NCBI GenBank assembly: GCA_963850905.1 | Contig: CAWKMU010000003.1 | Location: 384,001-448,000 of the forward strand | DNA: 64,000 nt | Reading direction: 5' to 3' | Source of the DNA: an uncultured Gemmatimonadales bacterium | GTDB lineage: Bacteria; Gemmatimonadota; Gemmatimonadetes; Gemmatimonadales; Gemmatimonadaceae | Shown here: piece by piece, positions 644-59,387 of the stretch | Layout: each line of letters begins with the position of its first letter | How positions within the stretch are numbered: the first letter of the stretch is position 1 | Translations under genes and position numbers: made by a program | Notes under the pieces: generated by a model | The model's input: the letters and a program-made list of their open reading frames with translations, nothing else | What the model was told of the DNA's origin: nothing | The model's database searches: none

Positions 644-2524
644 CACATTCGCCCTGTGCCCCGGTCGTCGACGGCCGCCACCCCTACATACTGTGCGGCG
701 CTCGCTTGGCGCTCCTGCTGTCGCTCGGCAGCGCGATCCTGCCGGGTGCCGCGCACGCTCAGACGCCGGTCACGCCAGCCTCCGCATCGCAAACCGCCGC
801 GCTGCGCATTGACTTCGTCAACGCGGATCTCTCCGATGTCATTCGCTCGGTGGCGACGGCGCTCGGAGTGAACATCGTCGTCACCGACGTGCCACCGCGC
901 CGTATCACGTTCCGGACACCGGAGCCGGTGCCGGCCACCCAGGCCGGGTCGGTCCTCGAGGGCATTCTCGCCAGCCAAGGGCTGGTCCTCGTCGCAAACG
1001 GTCCCGTGTTTCAGGTGCTCCCCACGGACAAGCGGCCGCCGACTGGCCCCCTGCACGCCGGGAAGACCCTCCCTGATCCACCTCCGCTCGGGCTCATCAC
1101 GCAGATCGTCCCGCTCGACTACATGCGGGCCGATGAGGCCGTGTCGCTCCTCCACGACGTCGCTGACAAGGAGGCGCGAGTCGAAGTCGTGCCCCGGTCC
1201 AACGCCGTGTTGATCACCGACCGCGGCGTGAATGTCGCGCGCTATCTGGAGCTCCTGCGCCAGATTGACGTCAAGACCGGCGGCGAGGCGGGCCTCAGCA
1301 CCTTCGTCTATCCACTCAAGCACGCGAACGCCACCGAGTTGGCCACGACGCTCGGTCAGGTGTTCGGCGCCACGGTGGTCGCCCCCACGAGCCGGGCCCG
1401 CGTACAGGCGCTCGAGGGCAAGGGATTGTCGAACGCGCTCTCCAACCTCGAATCGCGTGAGCTGGAGTCCGTGCAGCAGCGCACCGATGTTCCCCTGCAG
1501 GCTCCGGGTGCGGCGCCAGCTGCAGCCGAAAGCGCGCAAGCACAGGGTCGTGGAGTGCCCGGCGGATTGCTTGGCGGGACGACGATCGTCCCCGACCAGG
1601 CGACCAACTCCCTCGTCATTCGCACGGCGGCACCGAATTTCTCGATCCTGCAGAGCACGATCGAGCAACTCGATATCCGCCCCGCGCAGGTGCTGCTCGA
1701 GGTGTTGATCGCCGAAGTCACGCTCGACAAAGCCAGTCAGTACGGCGTCAACTGGAGCGTGTTCACCCACAACGGATTCAACGGCACCGATACCACGCGG
1801 GGGGTGCTGGCGATGCTCGGGCCACAGGTGGCCGACTCGCTCCTGAGCTCCATACCGGGGCTGGCGCTCCGCGTCGTCAGTCTCGGGAGCGTGAACGTGC
1901 GGGCCGTGCTCCAGGCGTTGGCTGCGCGCACCAACGTTCGCGTCCTCTCGGCACCACATGTGCTGGCGCTCAACAACGAAAAGGCGCGGATCCTCGTCGG
2001 CAGCCAGGTCCCGTTCAACTCGGCCACCATCACCGGCCTTGAACGCCAGCGTCGATCAAGTGGTCCAATATCAGAACGTCGGCACCCAGCTCACGGTACT
2101 CCCGACCGTGAACACGGACGGGTACGTGACCTTGCGATTGTTACAGGAAGTCAGTGAGCTCTCAACCGAAACCGTCCCCACCGCCCAGAACGCCCCGATC
2201 ATCACGACGCGCGAAGCGGAAACGAGCGCCATCATCAAGAATGAGCGCACGGTCGTGATCGGTGGGCTGATTAGTGAATCGCGCAGTAATCTCGAGAGCG
2301 GCATCCCACTGCTCAAGGACATTCCGCTCCTCGGCGCGCTCTTCAAGACCAAGAGCGTCGATCACACGCGTACCGAGCTCGCGATCTTCCTGACACCGCG
2401 CGTCGTCATGAGCGATGAGGGGGCCGATTCGTTGCTGCAGTCCGAAACGAAGCGGCTGCAGATCCTCGGGCCACAAGTCGACAGCGCGGTTTTCCATACA
2501 CCACCCGTGCCCCCACCACGGTGA
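640..2524 (+). CDS. gspD: T2SS secretin GspD (frameshift near 2040)
   Basis: ORF 640..2157 has a signal peptide, IDFVNADL, LDIRPAQVLLEVLIAEV and LNNEKARILVG. ORF 1958..2524 continues with QYQNVG...GIPLLKDIPLLGALF...ELAIFLTPRV. One extra base near ggccttgaac joins them. Confidence 0.92.
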
Positions 2525-4107
2525 CCGAGCCGGCGCTGGACATCGGTGCGCCGTGGACGGCACCCCTCGGCCCCACGTCCCCAACGGCTCACACCGCAAC
2601 GGACCTGCGCGCGGGAGCCGCCGGGTCACTCGCACAACGGCTGTCGCCCAAGTACCTGGATGAGTATTGCCTGATCCCGTTGTCGATCACGGACGCCAAC
2701 GAGTTGCTCGTGGCAGCTGGCGGGCCGCTCGACCCGACCGTGCTCGATGAGTTGGCGTGGACGTATGAGCGGCCGGTGCATGTGATCGAGGCACCACCCG
2801 CTGAGATCCACGCGGCCATCATGTCGGCGCAGACAGAGGACACCGCCGACGGCGGAGAGGACGGCCGCGCAGCTGGCGTCGAGCTCGTAGCAGACGACGA
2901 TGTCACCATCGATGACCTGCGCGCACTGGCGAACCAGACACCGGTCATCAAGCTGGTCAACCTGCTCATTCTGGAAGCATTGCGCGCGCGGGCCAGCGAC
3001 ATCCACCTGGAAGCCGGCGCTGATGGCCTCCGCGTTCGGTATCGGATCGACGGGGTGCTGCAGGAGATGGCCAACCCGCCGCGCCAGCACCAGGCGGCCG
3101 TGATCAGTCGTGTGAAGATCATGGCGTCGCTCAATATCGCCGAGCGTCGGCTGGCCCAGGACGGACGCATCCGTCTGAGGCTCTCCGACCGGGATCTCGA
3201 CCTCCGCGTCTCGATCACGCCGACGCTGCACGGGGAGAGCGTCGTGCTCCGCATCCTCGACCGCGGCGCCGGCGTGCGCGATCTCCGTGAGCTGGGCTGC
3301 GAACCGCTGCTGCTCGATGAGCTCGAGGGGTTGATTCGGCAACCACACGGGATCGTGCTCGTGACCGGTCCGACCGGCTCGGGTAAGACGACGACCCTGT
3401 ACGGCGCGATCGCCCGACTCAATCAGCCGGGCCTCAAGATCGTCACGGTCGAAGACCCCGTGGAGTATCAGATCCCCGGCGTCACGCAGATTCCGGTCAA
3501 CACAAAGATCGGGCTGACGTTCGCTGCGGCGTTGCGCTCCATCCTGCGCCATGACCCGGACGTGATCATGGTCGGCGAGATGCGCGATCGTGAAGCGGCG
3601 GAGATCGCCATTCAAGCGGCCCTGACCGGTCACCTCGTGTTCTCGACGCTCCACACAAACGATGCGGCTGCCGGCGTCACTCGCCTGGTCGATATGGGTA
3701 TCGAGCCGTACCTCGTGGCCGCGACAGTGCTCGGGATCGTCGCGCAGCGCCTGGTCCGCGTCGTCTGTGACCGCTGCGCCGTGGACGTTGACCCGGACTG
3801 CGATGTGCTCGCACGCGCCGCGATCGGGCAAACAGTCGTGCTCGCGCCCCGATTCCGACGCGGACGCGGATGCGACGCGTGCGCCGGCACCGGGTATCGG
3901 GGCAGGACGGGCGTGTACGAGCTCATGCCCATGACCCCCGAGCTCCGGGATGCAGTCGTGCGCGGCGTCCCGCTCGCGACGTTGCGGACGTTGGCCGGTG
4001 AACGCGGGATGACGTCCCTGCGCGCGGGCGCGTGGGCGAAGGCGTGCGCTGGCGTGACGACACTCGACGAGGTCCTGCGCGCCACGCGCGACGAGGCGCT
4101 GGCGTGA
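2521..4107 (+). CDS. gspE: T2SS ATPase GspE
   Basis: RASDIH, Walker A GPTGSGKT, TVEDPVE, LRHDPDVIMVGEMRD, LTGHLVFSTLHTND and two CxxC Zn motifs. Confidence 0.95.
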   Translation: MTEPALDIGAPWTAPLGPTSPTAHTATDLRAGAAGSLAQRLSPKYLDEYCLIPLSITDANELLVAAGGPLDPTVLDELAWTYERPVHVIEAPPAEIHAAIMSAQTEDTADGGEDGRAAGVELVADDDVTIDDLRALANQTPVIKLVNLLILEALRARASDIHLEAGADGLRVRYRIDGVLQEMANPPRQHQAAVISRVKIMASLNIAERRLAQDGRIRLRLSDRDLDLRVSITPTLHGESVVLRILDRGAGVRDLRELGCEPLLLDELEGLIRQPHGIVLVTGPTGSGKTTTLYGAIARLNQPGLKIVTVEDPVEYQIPGVTQIPVNTKIGLTFAAALRSILRHDPDVIMVGEMRDREAAEIAIQAALTGHLVFSTLHTNDAAAGVTRLVDMGIEPYLVAATVLGIVAQRLVRVVCDRCAVDVDPDCDVLARAAIGQTVVLAPRFRRGRGCDACAGTGYRGRTGVYELMPMTPELRDAVVRGVPLATLRTLAGERGMTSLRAGAWAKACAGVTTLDEVLRATRDEALA

Positions 4108-50378: not shown

Positions 50379-52237
50379 TGGTCCGTTGACTTCGACGCCG
50401 CTTTGCCCCGTCCCGCCGCGCGCTTCTTTGGCGTCGATTCGCTCGCCGCCGGCGCCGCGCGTTTGGTCCGCGCTCGCCCTCGCTTCGCCGCCGCCGCACG
50501 CCGCGCCGGCGGCGGAGCGCTTGCCGCCACTGCCGGCTCAGTCACGGCGGTTCCATGCGCCGCGGCACCAGGTGTCGGCGTCCGCGACTCCGCATGAGGG
50601 ACGAGCTCGACTGGGTGGTCCAGCGCGTGCCCAGCCTCCTGCGACGGTTCCGACGCGCCTGCCGGCGAGCCGGGCCGCACATCGACGATCCCGACCGAGA
50701 GCAACTCTGCCGGTGGCGCAGCCAGGCGCGCGTGCAACCCGCCACGTCGTACTCCCCGGACACCGAGTCCGCGCGGCGGCGCAGGGCCGGACGCGCCGGC
50801 AGCAGAAGCCGCCGGCCGAGTGTTCGCGGCAGCGGCAGCGTTGAGCTGTTGCGCCACCGGCGCAGCAGCTGCGGCTGGTACGACCTCGTAGTCGTCGCCA
50901 CGACGGCGCAGGTCGATCACGTCCGCATCGTGCGCATCGCGCAGAATTCGCGCGAAGTTCCGCTCGCTCAAGCTCTCGCTGTCGCGTCCGAGGATCTCGA
51001 ACGCCCTGCCGCGAATATCGGACGCGCGTACCGCGTCCTCGCCGTGTTGCAGCGCCGCCACGGCGCGCCGCACGAGGTCGAACGCTTCATCCCGCGTCAG
51101 TCGCTCGCCTGAAACACCGACCGCCGCAGCGGCCTCCTGCTCTCCCTGCTCGACGGGGCTCGTCGCCGGTACGGTCGGAACAGCCGCCACAGCCGGCACC
51201 GCCGCCGCCTCGGCCGGCACGTCAGCGGCCGGACCCGAGTCGCGTGCGGCCCTTGGCTCACGACCACGCCCACGCCCACCCCTCCGACCGCGCCGGCCAC
51301 GCTCTTCATGTGCCTTGGCCTCGCGGTCGGCTGGTGCGGACGCACGCTCTTCGGGCGCACTCGGCGTTGCGGGGGCTGCTGGCGCGCTCTCAGCCGCGCC
51401 CGGTCCCGCGCGAACAGGTCCGACTTCGAGTTGCCCGTTGTCCATCTTCGAGAGCGAGATCAGCCCGCGTTGTGCCGCTTCCTGCACGAAGCGTGAGAAC
51501 TTGGACATCCCGAGGTTCTTCTCGTCGAACGTGCTATCGATGTCCTGCATGACCTGCTTCAACCGATCGGCACGCATAACATCGCCGTTCCGCACCATGC
51601 GCGCGATCGCCTCGCTCACCAGCTCCCACGGGTCGCGCCGTCCTCCAGCGCCCGCTTCATCCTCCCCACCCGCACGCACGAGCCCGGCAAGCGCGTTGTA
51701 GCTGTAGTACTCGTCGCAGTTCATGACCAACAAGTCGCTGGACGACTCGCGAATGCCGACGCCGATCACGTACTTCCCGTACTCCTTGAGCTTGATCACA
51801 AGCGTCGAGAAATCGGAGTCGCCCGAGAGCAGGATGTACGTCCCGATCTCCGGTCGCGTGAACACCAGCTCCAATGCATCGATCGCCAGCCGGATATCGG
51901 TCGCGTTCTTCTTCGATGACCCGTACGCCGGCGCCATGATCATGTCGATCGAGGACTCGGCGAGTGGCGCGACGTACTGCGGGTAGCGGCGCCAGTCGGC
52001 GTAGGCACGCCGCAGCTGAACCTTCCCTTTGATGATGTCCGACGCCAGCAGCGTCCTCAGCTCCGTCTGCAGATCGGAGCGAATCCCCATCGTGACGTTG
52101 TCAAAATCGATGAGGAGCGCTGCGTTGGGCGCGAAGGTGAGTGGGGTCGGGACCGGGATGGGCGGCTGAGCGGACGGTGGACGGTGGACCGCTGGGGCGG
52201 CGCGCGAGGGCGTGTGGCGGGGGGAACGTGAGTTCAT
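50375..52237 (-). CDS. NYN-domain (PIN-like) ribonuclease with OST-HTH/LOTUS domain(s) and low-complexity linkers
   Basis: LLIDFDN, KNATDIRLAID, SGDSDF, CDEY, FDEKNLGMSKFSRF. Confidence 0.88.
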   Translation of the reverse strand: MNSRSPRHTPSRAAPAVHRPPSAQPPIPVPTPLTFAPNAALLIDFDNVTMGIRSDLQTELRTLLASDIIKGKVQLRRAYADWRRYPQYVAPLAESSIDMIMAPAYGSSKKNATDIRLAIDALELVFTRPEIGTYILLSGDSDFSTLVIKLKEYGKYVIGVGIRESSSDLLVMNCDEYYSYNALAGLVRAGGEDEAGAGGRRDPWELVSEAIARMVRNGDVMRADRLKQVMQDIDSTFDEKNLGMSKFSRFVQEAAQRGLISLSKMDNGQLEVGPVRAGPGAAESAPAAPATPSAPEERASAPADREAKAHEERGRRGRRGGRGRGREPRAARDSGPAADVPAEAAAVPAVAAVPTVPATSPVEQGEQEAAAAVGVSGERLTRDEAFDLVRRAVAALQHGEDAVRASDIRGRAFEILGRDSESLSERNFARILRDAHDADVIDLRRRGDDYEVVPAAAAAPVAQQLNAAAAANTRPAASAAGASGPAPPRGLGVRGVRRGGLHARLAAPPAELLSVGIVDVRPGSPAGASEPSQEAGHALDHPVELVPHAESRTPTPGAAAHGTAVTEPAVAASAPPPARRAAAAKRGRARTKRAAPAASESTPKKRAAGRGKAASKSTDQ

Positions 52238-52419
52238 GTGTCGCTAGGGATTCGGAGCGCGCGCTGCGCCAAACCTACACCCGGCGGGGGCACGCAAAAC
52301 CGGTGCACCCAGGAACAAGCGCGGCCTCCTCAGTATACCCGGAAATGTACGCGGGGGCTGGGACGGGGGTAAGGGACAGCAACCTACTAGGTGGCACAGT
52401 CGGGCAGTATACTGGACCC

Positions 52420-53796
52420 ATGGCACCACCGCGGTTTCGTACGCGCTTGTTCCTCACGCTGTCGCTGTTTGCGGTACTCCCAGCGGCCATTCTGACGCTG
52501 CTCTGGGCTGCAACATTGAGTACCGCGCTGCCGTTGCTGAGCGGCAGCGATGCGTGGGATCGCGTGGCCGCGAGCGGAGAGCGGGCGTTCGCCAGCGCGC
52601 GCTCGGAGGCGCTGACACCCGCGACGCGCACCGCGCTGGCTGCGCATGAGCAGGAGCTGGCGGCGTCGGTGACGCAAGCACGACGGTACCGGTATCTGGC
52701 GGTGCGCGCGGTGCCGATCGTCCTCGTGGTCGCCGCCGGCGCGCTCCTCCTGCTCGCGATCATCGCGTCGCGCGTGGCAGGACACCTCGCGAGGCAACTC
52801 AGCCGCCCGCTCGATGAGCTCGTGGGATGGACGGATCGCATCGCGCACGCGTTGCCTCTGCCGGTGACACCGCCACGGAGGGGCGCACCCGAGTTCGAAG
52901 TGCTGCGCCGCCGGATGCGCGCGATGGCCACGGATCTGGATGCCGGCCGCGCACGGGACCTGGAAGCCGAGCGGCTCCGCGCCTTCCGCGAAACCGCCCG
53001 CCAGGTGGCACATGAGTTGAAGAACCCGCTGACGCCCATCCGTCTCGCGGTCGGCCGCCTGCAGCGCGAGGCTCCCCCGATGCTACGTGATACGGTCGAC
53101 GTCTTGGCGACCGAGTCCGCTCGTTTGGAGGAGATGGCGCGGAGCTTTTCACAGTTCGGCAGGCTGCCAGAGGGACCGGCAGCGGACATCGACGTCGGTG
53201 AGATGGCCCGGTACACCACGCGAGCAGCCGTGCCCTCTCACATACCGGTCTCGGTCGAGGTCGATCCGGGAGTGCCACTCGTTCGCGGTCACTACGACAC
53301 GCTGGCGCGCGCGCTCACCAACGTGCTCCTCAACGCCTGCGACGCCTGTGCGCAGGGTGGGACCATCGAGGTCCACGTCACCGGAGCGACCTTGAACGCG
53401 GCAGGCACCACCGACGCCGTTCGGATCCTCGTCCGGGACGGAGGGACCGGCATCCCGGCAGACCGCGTGGCGCACGTGTGGGAGCCCTATGTGACGAACA
53501 AGCCGGGCGGCACGGGCCTGGGCTTGGCGATTACCCGCCAGGCCGTTGAGGCGCACGCGGGCCGCGTCGAGCTGACAAGTGTCGTGGGTCAAGGCACCGA
53601 CGTGTCGTTCACCCTGCCGGCCGCCCCCGCCGCGTCTGCCACGGCCAACGGAGCGGCACTCGCCGACCCGTCGCGCTCGGGCGTTGCGGCGTCGCCGGCC
53701 GAACCGTCGTCAGCGGTGACGTCCGAGCGCTCTCCACGTGATCCACAGCCCCGCCCAGGAACCGCCGGACGCCGCGTTGGCGGAGCAATGTCGTAA
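52420..53796 (+). CDS. Membrane sensor histidine kinase (NtrY-like HisKA/HATPase)
   Basis: Two TM segments, ARQVAHELKNPLTP, NVLLNA, DGGTG, GTGLGL. Confidence 0.92.
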   Translation: MAPPRFRTRLFLTLSLFAVLPAAILTLLWAATLSTALPLLSGSDAWDRVAASGERAFASARSEALTPATRTALAAHEQELAASVTQARRYRYLAVRAVPIVLVVAAGALLLLAIIASRVAGHLARQLSRPLDELVGWTDRIAHALPLPVTPPRRGAPEFEVLRRRMRAMATDLDAGRARDLEAERLRAFRETARQVAHELKNPLTPIRLAVGRLQREAPPMLRDTVDVLATESARLEEMARSFSQFGRLPEGPAADIDVGEMARYTTRAAVPSHIPVSVEVDPGVPLVRGHYDTLARALTNVLLNACDACAQGGTIEVHVTGATLNAAGTTDAVRILVRDGGTGIPADRVAHVWEPYVTNKPGGTGLGLAITRQAVEAHAGRVELTSVVGQGTDVSFTLPAAPAASATANGAALADPSRSGVAASPAEPSSAVTSERSPRDPQPRPGTAGRRVGGAMS

Positions 53797-56700
53797 TGGC
53801 ATCCGTCCTGATCGTCGACGATGAGCAGAACATTCGCCGCATGCTCGGCGCGTTGCTCATCGCCGAAGGGCACGAAGTGCGCGACGCACCTACCGGAGTG
53901 GCCGCGGTCGCCGCCGCAAAGGACGCCGCGCCAGATGTCGTGCTGCTCGATCTCATGATGCCAGGGCCGCTCGACGGCTTGGGGACGCTGGCCCAGCTCC
54001 GCGAGAACGACTCCGATCTCCCCGTCATCATGATGAGTGGGCGGGCCGGGTTGAGTGACGCGGTGCGTGCGACCAAGCTCGGAGCGTTCAACTTTCTCGA
54101 GAAACCGCTGTCGCCCGAATCGGTGCTGCTGGCCATCTCCGCCGCATTCGACCTCCGACAGGCACGGGCCGCGGCCAAAACGCTGCGTGTGGAGCTCGGA
54201 CTCGACGGCCCACTCGTCGGCGCAAGCGCCCCAATGCGACGAGTCGCCGAGCTGATGGCGCGCGTCGCACCCAGCGACTCCGGAGTGCTGATCACCGGCG
54301 AGTCGGGGACCGGCAAGGAGCTCGTCGCCGCCGCGATTCATGCCGGGAGCCGGCGACGGGACCGCCCCTTCGTTCGGGTCAATTGCGCCGCCATTCCGCG
54401 TGACCTCGTCGAAAGCGAGATGTTCGGACACGAGCGAGGTGCCTTTACCGGCGCGACCGACCGCCGCATCGGCCGGTTCGAGTTGGCGCACACCGGCACG
54501 CTCTTTCTCGACGAGGTCGGCGACCTGGGAGCGGAAGCGCAGGCCAAGTTGTTGCGCGCCATCGATGCGAAGGAAATCGAGCGTGTCGGAGGAACGCGCA
54601 CCATCCGTACGGACTTGCGGATCGTTGCGGCGACCAACAAGGACCTGCCCAGAGCGGTCGCCGAGGGCGGCTTTCGGGAAGATCTATATTTCCGCATAGC
54701 GGTTATCCCCATCGCCCTACCGCCCCTGCGTGACCGGTCGACCGATATCCCAGCACTCGTTCAACACTTCACCACGCTCCACCGAGCCCGCACGGGACGC
54801 GCCGTTCGCGGATGGAGTGACGACGCACTGCGTGTGCTCACGACGTATCGCTGGCCCGGCAACGTTCGCGAGCTCGCAAACATCGTCGAGCGCATCACGA
54901 TCCTGCACGCCAACGACCTCGTGACCGAGGACGACGTGCTCGCTGTGCTGCCCCTCGAGAACAGTACGGAGCCTGCGTGGTGGCGAGGCGATGTCGCATC
55001 GGCAACGGCGTGGCCGCGGGAGGCCGACGCGCGCCCGCGTCAGACCGCGCACGATGGCGCACACGGGCACGCGGCGACCCTGCCGACCGACACGGCGCGC
55101 GATGGAACCCGCCTCACGGCCCCGACCTCGGCGGACCCTCAGATCCCACTCGCCGACGCGCTCGACGCCTACGAGCGCCAGTTGATCGCGGAGGCGCTGA
55201 CGGACACGCAGGGCAATGTCACCGAGGCCGCTCGGCGCCTGCAGACTGATCGGCCCAATCTCTACCGCCGCATGCGGCGACTCGGCATCGCGCTCGGTGT
55301 GGTCCTCGCGTGCGCGCTCGCCATTACGGGAGCACTCGGCCTCACACCTGGGCGCGCCGCCGCCCAACGCCCGGACACCGCGGCCAGTAGTCAAAGTACG
55401 CCGCAGGTCCAGGAGGTGCCATCGTCAGCCGCCGCGTCTGGGGACTCGAGTGCGACATCAAACAACAGCGACACCACCGCGCTGGGCCACGCCGACACGG
55501 CGAGTCGCGCGGACAGTACGCCGCCGAGCGGCGATGCGTGGTGGCGTCGATGGCTGCTCCCGTCACATCCACCGAACTACGTCTCGTTCTCGCTCACCTC
55601 TGCCCACACCTACAACCGCGTCGAGGGCTTCCCGATCTATGCCGGCCCGACCGGGCGGCGAGTCTTTCCCTGGGGAAGCGTGTCGGGCGAGGCATACGGG
55701 ATCCTGCGCATTTCCGACAAGCTGCGCTGGGACGATGACCATATTGGAAGCGCTCTACACGGCCAGGTCACGGTCAACGCAGGGCCCGACCGCTCGTTCG
55801 CGGTCGGCGCACGCGTCTACGACGAGATCGACCCGGTCGAGTCCTGGCAGCTCTCGGACGCCGAAGTCGGCCTCGCCACCCTCTTTCTGCACCGCGACTA
55901 CGAAGACTACTTCGGCCGGCACGGGGCCATGGGGTACGTGGCGTTCAACCTCAACGCGAGTACCTCCTTCTCGCTCTCGTACTCCGACGAGCGCTGGGCC
56001 TCGCGCCCCGACCGCGACCCGTTCTCGGTGTTTCGCAACACCGCGGAGTGGCGCTTCAATCCAAACGTCGACGACGGACTGTTCCGCATCGCCGGCGCTC
56101 ATTTCGGGTTCGATACCCGCAACGACGAGACCGACCCGTGGGCCGGGTGGTACGTCTCCGCCGACCTCGAAGAAGGAGCCGGCGTGGTGACGAGCTTCGG
56201 CCCACGCACGGATGGAACAACCCCCATCGCGCCGGCCGGCGGAGCGAATGTCTTTTATACCCGCGGCTTCCTCGATGCACGGCGCTATAATCGGGTCGGC
56301 CCGACCGAGCAGCTCAACCTGCGACTCGTCCTCGCGGGCTGGCTCGCCGGCGATCAGTTGCCGCTGGAGCAACGCTTCTCGATGGGCGGCGCAGGCACGC
56401 TCCCCGGTTTTGATTTCCGGAATCCGGGCGCGGGCGCGGATGTGGCGACGTGCTCTGCCGGATCCCTGGTGCCGCCCGGTGCGCCCGCCCAATGCGAGCG
56501 CATCGCGCTTGCGCAGGTGGAATTCCGGCACGACCTGCGGGTCGGCCTCGCGGATCTCGTGCGCGGTGTGCCGCTCGACGGTGCGTGGATTCTCTTCGCC
56601 GACGCCGGTCGGGGGTGGCTCGTTGGTACGCCCGATGGATCAGTGACCTACCATGCGTCCACGCTGCCCCCGCTGGCCACCTTCCGGACCGACGCCGGTG

Positions 56701-56810
56701 TGGGCCTGGCGCTCGGGCCGTTCGGTTTCTACGTCGCGCAACCGATCTCGCCGTGGACCGGGGGCGCCGGCGGCCCGCGCTTCGTCATCCGCCTACAGCA
56801 ACGGTTCTGA
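53796..56810 (+). CDS. Sigma-54 response regulator (REC-AAA+-HTH) in frame with a signal peptide and an Omp85/BamA-TamA-like beta-barrel
   Basis: REC (LIVDD, LLD, KP), GESGTGKE, GAFTGA, LFLDE, WPGNVREL, Fis-type HTH. Then a hydrophobic segment ending RAAA|Q, followed by YNRVEG, FDTRN, QRFSMGGAGTLPGF, LFADAG and terminal IRLQQRF. Confidence 0.85.
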   Translation: MASVLIVDDEQNIRRMLGALLIAEGHEVRDAPTGVAAVAAAKDAAPDVVLLDLMMPGPLDGLGTLAQLRENDSDLPVIMMSGRAGLSDAVRATKLGAFNFLEKPLSPESVLLAISAAFDLRQARAAAKTLRVELGLDGPLVGASAPMRRVAELMARVAPSDSGVLITGESGTGKELVAAAIHAGSRRRDRPFVRVNCAAIPRDLVESEMFGHERGAFTGATDRRIGRFELAHTGTLFLDEVGDLGAEAQAKLLRAIDAKEIERVGGTRTIRTDLRIVAATNKDLPRAVAEGGFREDLYFRIAVIPIALPPLRDRSTDIPALVQHFTTLHRARTGRAVRGWSDDALRVLTTYRWPGNVRELANIVERITILHANDLVTEDDVLAVLPLENSTEPAWWRGDVASATAWPREADARPRQTAHDGAHGHAATLPTDTARDGTRLTAPTSADPQIPLADALDAYERQLIAEALTDTQGNVTEAARRLQTDRPNLYRRMRRLGIALGVVLACALAITGALGLTPGRAAAQRPDTAASSQSTPQVQEVPSSAAASGDSSATSNNSDTTALGHADTASRADSTPPSGDAWWRRWLLPSHPPNYVSFSLTSAHTYNRVEGFPIYAGPTGRRVFPWGSVSGEAYGILRISDKLRWDDDHIGSALHGQVTVNAGPDRSFAVGARVYDEIDPVESWQLSDAEVGLATLFLHRDYEDYFGRHGAMGYVAFNLNASTSFSLSYSDERWASRPDRDPFSVFRNTAEWRFNPNVDDGLFRIAGAHFGFDTRNDETDPWAGWYVSADLEEGAGVVTSFGPRTDGTTPIAPAGGANVFYTRGFLDARRYNRVGPTEQLNLRLVLAGWLAGDQLPLEQRFSMGGAGTLPGFDFRNPGAGADVATCSAGSLVPPGAPAQCERIALAQVEFRHDLRVGLADLVRGVPLDGAWILFADAGRGWLVGTPDGSVTYHASTLPPLATFRTDAGVGLALGPFGFYVAQPISPWTGGAGGPRFVIRLQQRF

Positions 56811-56812
56811 CG

Positions 56813-57514
56813 ATGCGCGCCAGGTTGATCACCGCCACCATGCTAGCCCTGCTCGCGGCAGCCACGCCAGCGCACGGCCAGCATCCGCGCGTGGCCCTCG
56901 ATCTGCCCCCCACAGCAGATACGTTGGCCCCTGGAGCCGGAACCACGGGAGAGGCCGGGAGCTTCGGCCCCACCGGCCCCATCGTCATCGGCCCGACCGT
57001 GCGAGCAATCGACGTGCTGTCGGACGGCCAGACGCGCGACTTGCTGCGCAACGGCTTCCCCGCCCGACTCCACTATCGCTTGGAATTGTGGCGTCAAAAT
57101 GGAGTCTTCAGCGCCATCGACAATACCAAGGAATGGGATGTCATCGTACGATTCGATCCGCTGACCAAGCGATTCCGTGCGGCGCGAGTGACCGGCGACA
57201 CGGCCACGGTCTTCGGCGATTTCCCGCAGTTCCCGGCGCTCGCCTCGGCGATGGCCGCGCCCTTCGTCGTCCCGCTCGTACCGAAGCGCCGCGGCGGCCG
57301 GTATTTCTACAACGTGGTCCTCGATGTGGAGATGCTGTCCCTCAGTGATCTCGATGAAGTCGAACACTGGCTGCGCGGCGAGTTGCGGCCCGCCGTCCAG
57401 GGCAAACGGAACCCCGCCGGCGTCGTCGGCCGCGGACTCCGCACGCTCTTCGTCCGCCTCCTCGGCGCCGAGCGCCGTCACTATGAGGTGCGATCGAAGG
57501 AGTTCAAAGGGTAG
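56813..57514 (+). CDS. Exported protein, DUF4390-like
   Basis: Signal peptide (AHG|Q), LLRNGFPARLHYRLELWR, VRFDPLTKRF. The family call comes from motif recollection and proximity to an NtrY/X-like pair. Confidence 0.55.
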   Translation: MRARLITATMLALLAAATPAHGQHPRVALDLPPTADTLAPGAGTTGEAGSFGPTGPIVIGPTVRAIDVLSDGQTRDLLRNGFPARLHYRLELWRQNGVFSAIDNTKEWDVIVRFDPLTKRFRAARVTGDTATVFGDFPQFPALASAMAAPFVVPLVPKRRGGRYFYNVVLDVEMLSLSDLDEVEHWLRGELRPAVQGKRNPAGVVGRGLRTLFVRLLGAERRHYEVRSKEFKG

Positions 57515-57778
57515 GGGCGACGCCATGCGTCGCCCGGCGTGCGGGGATTCGACACCTGATTCGGCGGCGATCGGAACGCCGACCTGCCGACACCATGCCT
57601 TGATCTACCAGCGGCGACGACACGCGACGACGAAAAAGGGCGGCCTAAAGGCCGCCCCTACATGTCGGATCGACGGTGACACTCCCAGCGAGCCGTACCG
57701 ACGATTGCAATTACGGGTCGATGAATCTGGTTCTTATGCTGCCCGCAGCGACATGTAGGGGCGGGCTTCAGCCCGCCC
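57511..57778. repeat. Three GTAG-REPs in alternating orientation (57511-57535 +, 57638-57661 -, 57755-57778 +)
   Basis: GTAG-GGGCG...CGCCC palindromes. The last two share the 14-bp inverted flank GCCCCTACATGTCG/CGACATGTAGGGGC. Confidence 0.82.
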
Positions 57779-57831
57779 ACCTTGCCGAATCGTCGCTGTT
57801 GTGGTTCCAGACCCCTGACCCCCGTTAAGCC

Positions 57832-58420
57832 TCACCCCACCGCCCGAATCACCTTCCGCTGTTCCAGTTCCTCCAACTGGTGCAACGTCTCCGCCCCGTA
57901 GAACAACTTGATGTACCGCGCTTGGGTGGGCGTGAGACGGCGCACCGCCCAGCTCAGATGCACGAAGTGCGGCTCCACGGGCAGCGTGAGCGGATGCATG
58001 CCGATCTCCTCGGGGAGGCGATTGGCCTTCCGCGTGTTGCAGGGCGCGCACGCGGTCACGACGTTGCTCCAGTCGTTCGTGCCGCCCCGGGAGAGCGGAA
58101 TCGAGATGATCGCGCGTCAAGCCCTCGCGCGGCTTCAAGTCAGCCGCGGAGCGCCCGCAGTACTGGCAGCGATAGCGATCGCGCGCGAAGAGGAACGTGT
58201 TGGTCACCTGGCGGCGGAACCGGCGGGGCACGTGGATGAACTTCGTGAGGCGGATCACGACCGGGCGCGGCAACGTCAGACGCTCGGACCGCACCACTCG
58301 CTCAGCGTCGCACTCGACGACTTCGGCCTTGCCATCAATCACCAGGCGCAGTGCTCGCCGCATCGGCACCATCGTGAGCGGCTCGAATGACGCGTTGAGC
58401 GCCAGACACCCGGCGATCAC
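57832..58420 (-). CDS. HNH endonuclease (McrA-like; frameshift near 58105)
   Basis: LALNASFEPL, FARDRYRCQYCG, TRDH, then in the second frame VTACAPCNTRK. Confidence 0.87.
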
Positions 58421-58443
58421 ACGCACTCCGGCCGCGCCCGCGG

Positions 58444-59387
58444 TCATCTCGCGGCGACAGCGGGCTCGGGAACCGGCTGTCAGCCACCCGTACGGATCGG
58501 GGTAGCGCCCGCGGGCAATGCCGAGATACCGGTCCTGCACAGCTTTGCTGATCGGGCCCTGGCTTGCCTTCGCCGACCTGAATGTGGTCGACCGACCGGA
58601 CCGGCGTGATCTCCGCGGCCGTGCCGCTGAAGAAAATCTCGTCGGCCATGTACAGGAACTCGCGCGGGATCAGCTGCTCCCGCACGTCGTGCCCCAGATC
58701 CGCGACGAGCCGCATCACCGTGTCGCGTGTGATCCCACCGAGGATGCCGGCCGACATGGGCGGCGTATAGACGACCCCTTCGCGCACGACGAAGATATTC
58801 TCGCCAGTGCCCTCGGAAACGAAGCCGGCCGCATCGAGCATGATCCCCTCGACGTACCCATTGGCTCGTGCCTCCATGAGCGACAACTGGCCATTCAGAT
58901 AGTTCCCGCCGGCCTTCGCCAGGGTCGGGAACGTGTCCGGTGCCGCGCGTCTCCAACTGGACACACAGACATCGACGCCTCTGGCCAACGCATCGTCACC
59001 GAGATACTGGCCCCACTTCCATGCGATGATGAACGTCTCGATCGTCCCTGGCTTGTCCTCGGGAAGCACCCCCATCCGTTCCCCGGTCCGGATCACGACC
59101 GGGCGAAGGTAGCACTCCTCGAGATCATTGGCGGCTACCGTGTCCACGCACGCCTGGATCAACGCGTCGATCGTGTACGGCAGCGGCATGCGATAAATGC
59201 GCGAGGAATCGACGAGACGCCGGACGTGGTCGCGCAGGCGAAAGATCGCCCCGCCCTGTGGAGTCTTGTAGCAGCGGAGACCCTCGAAGACGCTGGACCC
59301 GTAGTGCACGACGTGACTGAGCACGTGGATCGTGGCGTCGGGCCAGTCCACGAAGTGGCCATCCCGCCAAATCTTTTGGGTGCGCAT
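58444..59387 (-). CDS. ilvE: Branched-chain amino acid aminotransferase (frameshifts near the 3' end)
   Basis: HYGSSVFEG, YLRP, KAGGNY, EGTGENIF, LGGITR, SGTAAEITP. The C-terminus QDRYLGI...GWLT is in another frame. Confidence 0.9.

Follow-up and report, generated by a model that had tools for sequence, protein, structure and literature searches.

A sigma-54 activator read in frame into a POTRA-less Omp85-type barrel through a putative internal signal peptide in the Gemmatimonadaceae

In bacteria, a signal peptide is expected at the N-terminus of a protein, and a sigma-54 activator is expected to be soluble. The gene considered here lies in a 64,000-nucleotide stretch of the genome of an uncultured Gemmatimonadales bacterium (assembly GCA_963850905.1, contig CAWKMU010000003.1, positions 384,001 to 448,000; this whole stretch is what we call the window), and it joins, in one reading frame, a sigma-54-dependent response regulator, a segment resembling a Sec signal peptide and a barrel of the Omp85 type. 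It raises the questions of how the Sec system of a bacterium handles a signal that comes after a large folded cytoplasmic domain, whether signal peptidase splits a single chain into proteins destined for two compartments, and whether a transcription activator can be delivered by way of a membrane-tethered intermediate. Comparison with the sequences of related genomes confirms that the join is no assembly error but a genuine and old fusion that recurs and is under selection.

The fused gene and its conservation

The gene and its parts, numbered within the window, are the following.

53796..56810, plus strand: fusion gene (regulator, internal signal peptide, linker and barrel); ATG start, 1004 codons, stop TGA at 56808-56810
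53805..54137, plus strand: REC domain, residues 4-114 (PF00072 Response_reg, E 3.6e-26), with LLDLMMPG at residues 50-57
54213..54947, plus strand: AAA+ sigma-54 interaction domain and lid, residues 140-384 (Pfam)
54297-54320, plus strand: Walker A motif GESGTGKE, residues 168-175, intact
54438-54455, plus strand: GAFTGA motif, residues 215-220, intact
54501-54521, plus strand: Walker B region LFLDEVG, residues 236-242, intact
55167..55280, plus strand: Fis-type helix-turn-helix (HTH; family HTH_8), residues 458-495 (PF02954, E 2.8e-9)
55272..55364, plus strand: signal-peptide-like segment Met493-Ala523 (MRRLGIALGVVLACALAITGALGLTPGRAAA), with AAA/Q at residues 521-524
55272, plus strand: candidate internal start ATG (Met493)
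55365..55541, plus strand: disordered linker rich in Ser, Thr, Pro and Asp, residues 524-582 (confidence of AlphaFold2 (AF2) models, given as the predicted local distance difference test (pLDDT), and alignment)
55542..56807, plus strand: POTRA-less Omp85-type 16-stranded beta-barrel, residues 583-1004 (Pfam, AF2 and Foldseek)

An earlier note on this DNA had described a single open reading frame (ORF) of 1004 codons with an intact REC-AAA+(GAFTGA)-HTH regulator and a barrel. The ORF listing, the translation, which has no stop inside the frame of 53796..56810 over its 1004 amino acids, and Pfam agree on this description. By its sequence the upstream half is an NtrC-family sigma-54 enhancer-binding response regulator: PF00158 (Sigma54_activat) covers residues 140-306 (E 7.8e-68), PF25601 (AAA_lid_14) covers residues 312-384 (E 1.5e-21), and Asp52 in LLDLMMPG is presumably the phospho-acceptor, going by what is known of the NtrC family. 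The best NCBIfam models for the regulator are ntrC, AtoC, a PEP-CTERM regulator and NtrX, and all of the equivalog cut-offs are missed (411.3 bits vs 558.6 for ntrC, TIGR01818; 379.3 vs 600 for NtrX, NF051870). With the NtrC/NtrX family it shares the REC domain, the AAA+ domain with GAFTGA, the Fis-type HTH, a HAMP-HisKA kinase encoded next to it and the presence of rpoN in the genome (a single locus, with a PF04552 match of 215 bits), which encodes about ten sigma-54 activators of such type. It differs from that family not only in falling below the equivalog cut-offs but also in its length, for known members are soluble and end a few residues past the HTH, whereas the present chain extends for 506 residues past Ile498 at the end of the HTH.

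In the downstream half, the Pfam family Omp85 (PF01103) matches residues 767-985 with 37.1 bits against a cut-off of 24. An AF2 model of the barrel based on a 76-sequence alignment has 16 strands and a pLDDT of 84, and its top Foldseek matches are BamA barrels (E down to 5e-10), with TamA and Sam50 also matched; the barrel that had been proposed at first reading is thereby upheld by profile hidden Markov models as well as by structure prediction. It is not a BamA equivalog (TIGR03303, 12.1 bits vs a cut-off of 297). The C-terminus, IRLQQRF, ends in an aromatic residue and is what we take to be the beta-signal; R999, Q1002, R1003 and F1004 are invariant in the 23 fused proteins described below. 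No POTRA family is found among the Pfam matches of the ORF at E<=0.1, and the region ahead of the barrel is disordered. In the AF2 model of P0002 the signal segment forms a helix at residues 2-21 and residues 27-90 have a pLDDT below 50, the mark of disorder. POTRA-less ('noNterm') Omp85 proteins have been described by Heinz and Lithgow (2014, PMC4104836) and as paralogues in Leptospira (PMC11358297), and they resemble the present protein in having a 16-stranded barrel without POTRA. They differ from it in that the barrel here is tied to a two-component system and in that most of its orthologues have an N-terminal bactofilin-like domain.

The long open frame is by itself weak evidence of a fusion, because a G+C content of 67-68% allows accidental long frames; one of 943 aa is open in L016, a relative without the fusion. 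The case for the fusion is made by homology in the same frame on both sides of the join, by the conservation of a stop-less join and by purifying selection. Regulator and barrel lie in one frame with a stop-less junction in all ten genomes of the genus (G000-G009), and these include multi-contig assemblies that are 92-98% complete (G003, G006 and G009). When a protein collection was searched with the barrel part, 1331 proteins matched at E<=1e-3, of which the best 120 were listed. The best 23 of the 1331 (51-96% identity) all have regulator domains; they are mostly 954-1011 aa long, two being truncated at the N-terminus, and they represent protein clusters from assemblies of NCBI, JGI, ENA and Logan. 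The remaining 97 of the best 120 are stand-alone barrels of 562-667 aa, and the source names of the homologues point to Gemmatimonadaceae. The earlier note had proposed a search of related genomes for the same architecture and had allowed for the outcome that all orthologous loci would turn out to be two separate genes; the search instead found the join in all ten genomes of the genus and in further genera, the loci of the same genus being fused without exception.

Selection on the two halves was estimated from the ratio of nonsynonymous to synonymous divergence (dN/dS) in six pairs among four intact loci of the genus, with a synonymous divergence (dS) of about 0.55-1.5 and with the values for L022 left out. 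The ratio is 0.06-0.13 for REC, 0.07-0.17 for AAA+, 0.03-0.23 for the HTH and 0.12-0.26 for the barrel, and it is 0.15-0.83 for the signal segment and 0.15-0.41 for the linker. On these figures both halves are under purifying selection and, because dN/dS is far below 1 at a dS of about 1, both would have been kept working long after the fusion.

The putative internal signal and the proposed fate of the precursor

The HTH ends in LYRRMRRLGI (residues 489-498), which is directly continued by IALGVVLACALAITGALGLTPGRAAA/Q, and its last helix (...RPNLYRRMRRLG) doubles as the Arg-rich n-region of the predicted signal peptide. The columns of residues 489-497 (L489 to G497) are invariant across the 23 fused proteins. 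That the same codons serve as the end of the HTH and as a signal n-region had been claimed from this one sequence, and the claim extends to all 23 proteins, in which RRMRRLG is invariant or nearly so. In at least 28 genomes of four genera the DNA-recognition helix of an activator appears to be at the same time the charged start of an export signal. Judged by sequence rules, this signal, which starts at residue 493 and so is not N-terminal in the ORF, has RRMRR as its n-region and a predicted signal peptidase I site at the Ala523/Gln524 boundary (55364/55365). The (-3,-1) pattern is present in 23/23 fused proteins, with A, G or S at -1 (18, 4 and 1 proteins) and A, L or V at -3 (14, 7 and 2), and so is Q at +1; P or G occurs at -4 to -7 in 22 of the 23. 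Position -2 is variable, with ten residue types among these proteins, and the h-region drifts. Sites of the A-x-A type are also retained in the independently fused genera g83 and g82, of which more is said below.

We favor, at a probability of about 0.55, the possibility that one precursor is made and targeted to Sec by the internal signal, that signal peptidase I cuts it and the barrel goes to the outer membrane, and that the regulator is freed when the signal peptide is cleared. Translation from 53796 would run through all 1004 codons and, as there is no stop, every regulator molecule would be made as a full-length chain. Once the regulator had been made in the cytoplasm, the hydrophobic stretch after RRMRRLG would be recognized as a Sec signal inside the chain; with the Arg-rich helix of the HTH as its positive n-region, it would insert N-in/C-out. 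The linker and barrel would then be translocated, signal peptidase I would cut after Ala523 (A-A-A/Q), the barrel would be inserted in the outer membrane and the regulator would retain the signal peptide at its C-terminus as a tail in the membrane. The regulator would probably become a free DNA-binding sigma-54 activator only after clearance of this tail by a site-2 protease or SppA. Our reasoning for tail removal is that the HTH recognition helix, which is strongly conserved, would otherwise lie directly against the membrane. The genome encodes an M50 site-2 protease and three signal peptidases I, and one report describes RseP-type site-2 proteases as clearing remnant signal peptides in E. 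coli (PMC8144685). What the sequences show is the fusion, its conservation, purifying selection on both halves, the conserved cleavage pattern and the missing Shine-Dalgarno motif; that the chain is targeted to Sec and cleaved, that the regulator is set free and what the physiological role may be is what we infer.

Several points weigh against this scenario. Bacteria do not usually have a folded cytoplasmic domain, here of 490 residues, in front of a Sec signal. The h-region is long and leans toward an uncleaved signal anchor: the uncharged stretch has a median of 23 (range 15-28, n=24) in fused proteins and of 16 (range 10-29, n=157) in unfused signal peptides, a comparison of related sequences that are not independent, and part of the extra length is the LGI inherited from the HTH. 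Initiation at ATG 55272 may be of a non-Shine-Dalgarno or leaderless kind. That the regulator leaves the membrane is something we purely infer, and the full-length AF2 model of the fusion (23-sequence alignment, mean pLDDT 47.7, predicted template modelling score 0.30) is uninformative. A continuous helix over residues 475-515 in that model was not used as evidence, the pLDDT there being below 50.

One precedent is FbcH of Bradyrhizobium japonicum, studied by Thony-Meyer et al. and reportedly a precursor of cytochromes b and c1 that is cut at an internal signal peptide. The likeness to FbcH lies in one ORF for two mature proteins joined by the signal peptide of the downstream protein, with signal peptidase as the proposed separator. 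The upstream part of FbcH is, however, a polytopic membrane protein and its products are in one complex, whereas here a soluble DNA-binding ATPase comes first and the predicted destinations are the cytoplasm and the outer membrane. The proposed tethered intermediate would also resemble regulators released by site-2 proteases (RseA/sigmaE and FecR), since it would be N-in, have a single C-terminal membrane helix and keep almost no periplasmic tail after cleavage; it would differ from them in that the tether is a spent signal peptide rather than a dedicated anti-sigma domain and in that the cargo is an enhancer-binding protein. Two papers report that RseP handles N-in substrates with a single C-terminal membrane helix (PMC8144685, PMC10470546). 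Our literature search found no published description of this regulator-barrel architecture. Its parts come from known superfamilies; neither the way in which they are combined nor a Sec signal that follows a soluble DNA-binding ATPase of 490 residues turned up in that search.

A bolder version of the scenario, which we offer as speculation and would not expect to hold, is that the fusion is a control device: every activator molecule would start out tethered to the inner membrane by the signal peptide of the barrel and could bind DNA only after export of the barrel, the cut by signal peptidase I and trimming by an intramembrane protease. If this were true, the sigma-54 transcription of the module would be gated by the capacity for export and for envelope proteolysis, and we would be dealing with an enhancer-binding protein that is activated by regulated intramembrane proteolysis and has evolved about three times.

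Among the other routes by which the two halves might be expressed, internal initiation fares best, and we nonetheless consider it unlikely as the main route. Translation would start at ATG 55272, whether the message is that of the operon or a transcript of internal or leaderless type, and give an ordinary barrel precursor (MRRLGIALG...AAA/Q), while the full-length product would be a tolerated by-product or would be processed likewise. Consistent with this idea, (i) the signal peptide is well formed when read from Met493; (ii) this Met is invariant in 23/23 fused proteins and (iii) g82 has a Met after RLG that may be the original initiator of the barrel. However, Met493 is equally conserved in unfused regulators and, because of this, is to be seen as a residue of the HTH and no evidence of a start. 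The earlier note had seen no obvious Shine-Dalgarno (SD) sequence before ATG 55272, and the same is true throughout the fused loci: GGAG, GAGG or AGGA occurs within 30 nt before the internal ATG in 0/20 of them, vs 9/11 separate barrel genes that have such a motif 5-12 nt before their ATG. Synonymous variation upstream of the internal ATG is similar to that of unfused loci, no sigma-70-like promoter site was found near the junction (54900-55400) or in 51800-58000, where the host's promoter types may differ from that model, and a full-length chain would still be required for every regulator molecule, there being no stop. As to a regulator that would be terminated by a frameshift, inspection by eye of the sequence past the junction found no stop nearby in +1 and only one in +2, about 40 codons downstream. 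Given the conserved cleavage pattern and the distribution of SD motifs, a polyprotein cut by signal peptidase, one of the routes suggested in the earlier note, appears from sequence to be the best supported of them.

It seems to us quite improbable that the signal remains uncleaved as an anchor. The product would then be one chain, a membrane-tethered sigma-54 activator with its C-terminal part either in the periplasm or in the outer membrane as a barrel, which in the latter case would make a trans-envelope link out of a single polypeptide. The longer uncharged stretch of the fused forms fits such an anchor, and the disordered linker of this genome, with its roughly 60 residues, could span part of the periplasm. 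What argues for cleavage is that the (-3,-1) pattern and Q at +1 in every fused protein, and the helix breakers at -4 to -7 in all but one, are kept while the h-region drifts, and that the cleavage pattern is found in the independent fusions too. Furthermore, the distance from the hydrophobic stretch to the first barrel motif is about 40 residues in L027 (g82), which by an estimate from periplasm widths is short for spanning the periplasm, and an anchored chain would leave the recognition helix of the HTH, a domain under strong purifying selection, against the membrane without a linker.

Next to no weight can be given to the idea that the stop was removed by an assembly indel or that the join is a recent non-functional accident, since the frame breaks elsewhere in this assembly (82% complete, six contigs) and the lack of cover of the junction by Logan contigs, which might speak for an artefact, are set against the same join in 10/10 genomes of the genus, high-completeness multi-contig assemblies included, its presence in 23 protein clusters from NCBI, JGI, ENA and Logan, and a dN/dS far below 1 in both halves at a dS of about 1. 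The Logan contigs in question, from four soil-metagenome runs, were compared over 54900-55800 and leave 55086-55302 uncovered, and thus neither confirm nor contradict the junction; the sequence search had found eight DNA runs in four soil-metagenome studies, with no RNA among those listed. The frame breaks split the M50 protease gene (G000:C3:2649684-2650752) and two sigma-54 activator genes (G000:C3:1831262-1831762 and G000:C3:1667711-1668228), which suggests indel errors typical of long-read assemblies.

Distribution and origin of the join

When 401 genomes of the family were searched with the junction peptide, 386 of them matched. Among the matches listed, which makes the counts lower bounds, the fusion is found in at least 28 genomes and in four of the 77 genera.

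Genus g1: fusion in 10/10 genomes
Genus g28: fusion in 2/3 genomes, G042 being without a match
Genus g83: fusion in 5/5 genomes, four of them checked by translation
Genus g82: fusion in at least 11/14 genomes, including the unpublished G271

The three other g82 genomes are of different kinds. G400 has separate genes with an ATGA overlap of barrel ATG and regulator TGA and a GGAGG motif ahead of it, G386, a low-completeness assembly of three contigs, has a frame break at the junction, and G354 has only a fragment at a contig end. In g28, G042 (96% complete) matches neither the junction peptide nor the barrel; the module could have been lost there, or its copy could be divergent.

Ten further genera of the family were represented by one locus each, and in these ten loci, among them L012 from the unpublished genome G016, the regulator and barrel genes are separate. 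The unfused regulators stop 4-10 residues after LG(I), and the unfused barrels start independently, with an ordinary signal peptide at the N-terminus that ends in AxA/Q. These separate genes (L010, L012-L020, L031 and the pair in G400) resemble the fusion in encoding orthologous proteins in the same order of kinase, regulator, barrel and DUF4390, as well as in the end of the HTH, LYRRM(R/K)RLG, and in the end of the signal peptide. They differ from it in the stop after the HTH, in the barrel's own start and, usually, in the presence of the bactofilin-like domain. This domain, a beta-helix found between the signal peptide and the POTRA-less barrel in most unfused orthologues and in the fused g83 forms (L010, L012-L018, L020, L023-L026, L031; P0043, P0046, P0068, P0071, P0084, P0122), is recognized by PF04519 matches that are weak or precomputed. 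It has been lost or swapped for a disordered linker in g1/g28, g82 and g12, the linker standing in its place in g1 and g28. A bactofilin-like module is an odd periplasmic partner for an Omp85 protein.

An IQ-TREE analysis of the regulator and barrel columns of 23 loci, with the junction excluded, places the fused loci in three groups: g1 with g28, g83 beside the unfused g50, and g82 beside the unfused g12. None of 200 bootstrap trees could be explained by one change only, and a single fused clade was rejected by the approximately unbiased (AU) test (delta lnL 39.3, p=0.0026, a value to be read with the caveat that the group was named after a quick FastTree of the barrel had already been seen). 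The junctions themselves read RRLGI-A in g1 and g28, mostly RRL-A in g83 and RLG-M in g82, and these differences run parallel to the groups of the tree. We therefore consider it likely, on this comparison, that about three independent fusions have occurred within one family, and we reject a single origin on the tree and the AU test. One old fusion followed by several later fissions is possible on counts alone. The pairing of P0167 with P0161 in the FastTree carries no weight, P0167 being frame-broken: in this 605-aa protein frame errors join a broken barrel to a DUF4390-like protein, and some collection entries for the locus are unreliable.

The comparisons indicate that the ancestral state behind each fusion was a tightly coupled pair of regulator and barrel genes, and most relatives still have the two as separate genes. 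Small in-frame deletions between near-repeats may have merged the translationally coupled regulator and barrel genes of an NtrYX-like module. In unfused relatives closest to the fused groups, barrels begin much like the regulator's MRRLGI (MRRLF in P0124, MIRRLA in L031 and MSRLGI in L020), and in-frame deletions between such near-repeats would give the observed joins. In the unfused L031, for example, the regulator ends in ...RRMRRLGIGGN and a stop, and after 24 codons MIRRLAAC... follows in the same frame. The earlier suggestion of a deletion-fusion at MRR microhomology thus gains support from the separate-gene relatives and from the MRRLGI-like starts of their barrels. Loss of the stop codon with read-through of the spacer was considered as an origin and rejected, since spacer residues are found in no fused form. 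In the unfused L019 (G020, g12), 7 nt lie between the regulator stop and a possible barrel ATG, and there is no bactofilin-like domain; as a neighbor of the fused g82 group in the tree it may represent an intermediate-looking state. Because the join arose repeatedly and outlasted divergence at a dS of about 1, it offers a natural test case for the questions raised at the outset.

Gene neighborhood and other observations

Two genes flank the fusion closely.

52420..53796, plus strand: sensor histidine kinase gene (HAMP, HisKA and HATPase_c by Pfam)
56813..57514, plus strand: gene for a secreted DUF4390-like (PlrP-like) protein, its ATG 2 nt past the TGA of the fusion

The kinase start at 52420 is a chosen ATG (MAPPRF...), and the kinase TAA shares one base with the start codon of the fusion (TAATG). 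The downstream protein matches PF14334 at E 0.007 and 16.3 bits, under the cut-off of 27; PF14334 is precomputed in 37 of its 120 listed homologues, one of which carries the NCBI name DUF4390. In 6/6 genomes from two other families of the order, the genes for kinase, regulator, barrel and DUF4390-like protein, all unfused, follow one another in the same way. From the gene neighborhood, the locus looks like an NtrYX-type envelope-related system to which an Omp85-like barrel has been added. In a report on proteobacteria (PMC13001219), the periplasmic DUF4390 protein PlrP is genetically a third component of PlrSR, a system of the NtrYX family, and there, as here, the genes for the kinase and an NtrX-like regulator have next to them a gene for a secreted protein, of DUF4390 type there and DUF4390-like here. 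The two arrangements differ in that the DUF4390 gene of proteobacteria is 5' of the kinase gene, whereas in the window it is 3' with the barrel between, and in that the DUF4390-like protein of the window misses the Pfam cut-off. A POTRA-less Omp85 barrel tied to an NtrYX-like system with a DUF4390 partner is a lead on the function of both.

Two observations concern other genes. In the window, the ORF at 57734..58540 on the minus strand (268 aa) has no Pfam match at E<=0.01; judged by eye, its stretch CQYCG...DH is HNH-like. Elsewhere in the genome, at L038 (G000:C3:2437237-2440875), tatC and an LptD-like sequence may be two genuine genes or may have been separated by an indel in the assembly: the tatC ORF (1459..2250) ends in a stop, and an LptD-like ORF (2247..3638) that overlaps tatC in another frame has the signal-peptide-like sequence WGVWLVALAAIVGHPRDARAQ.

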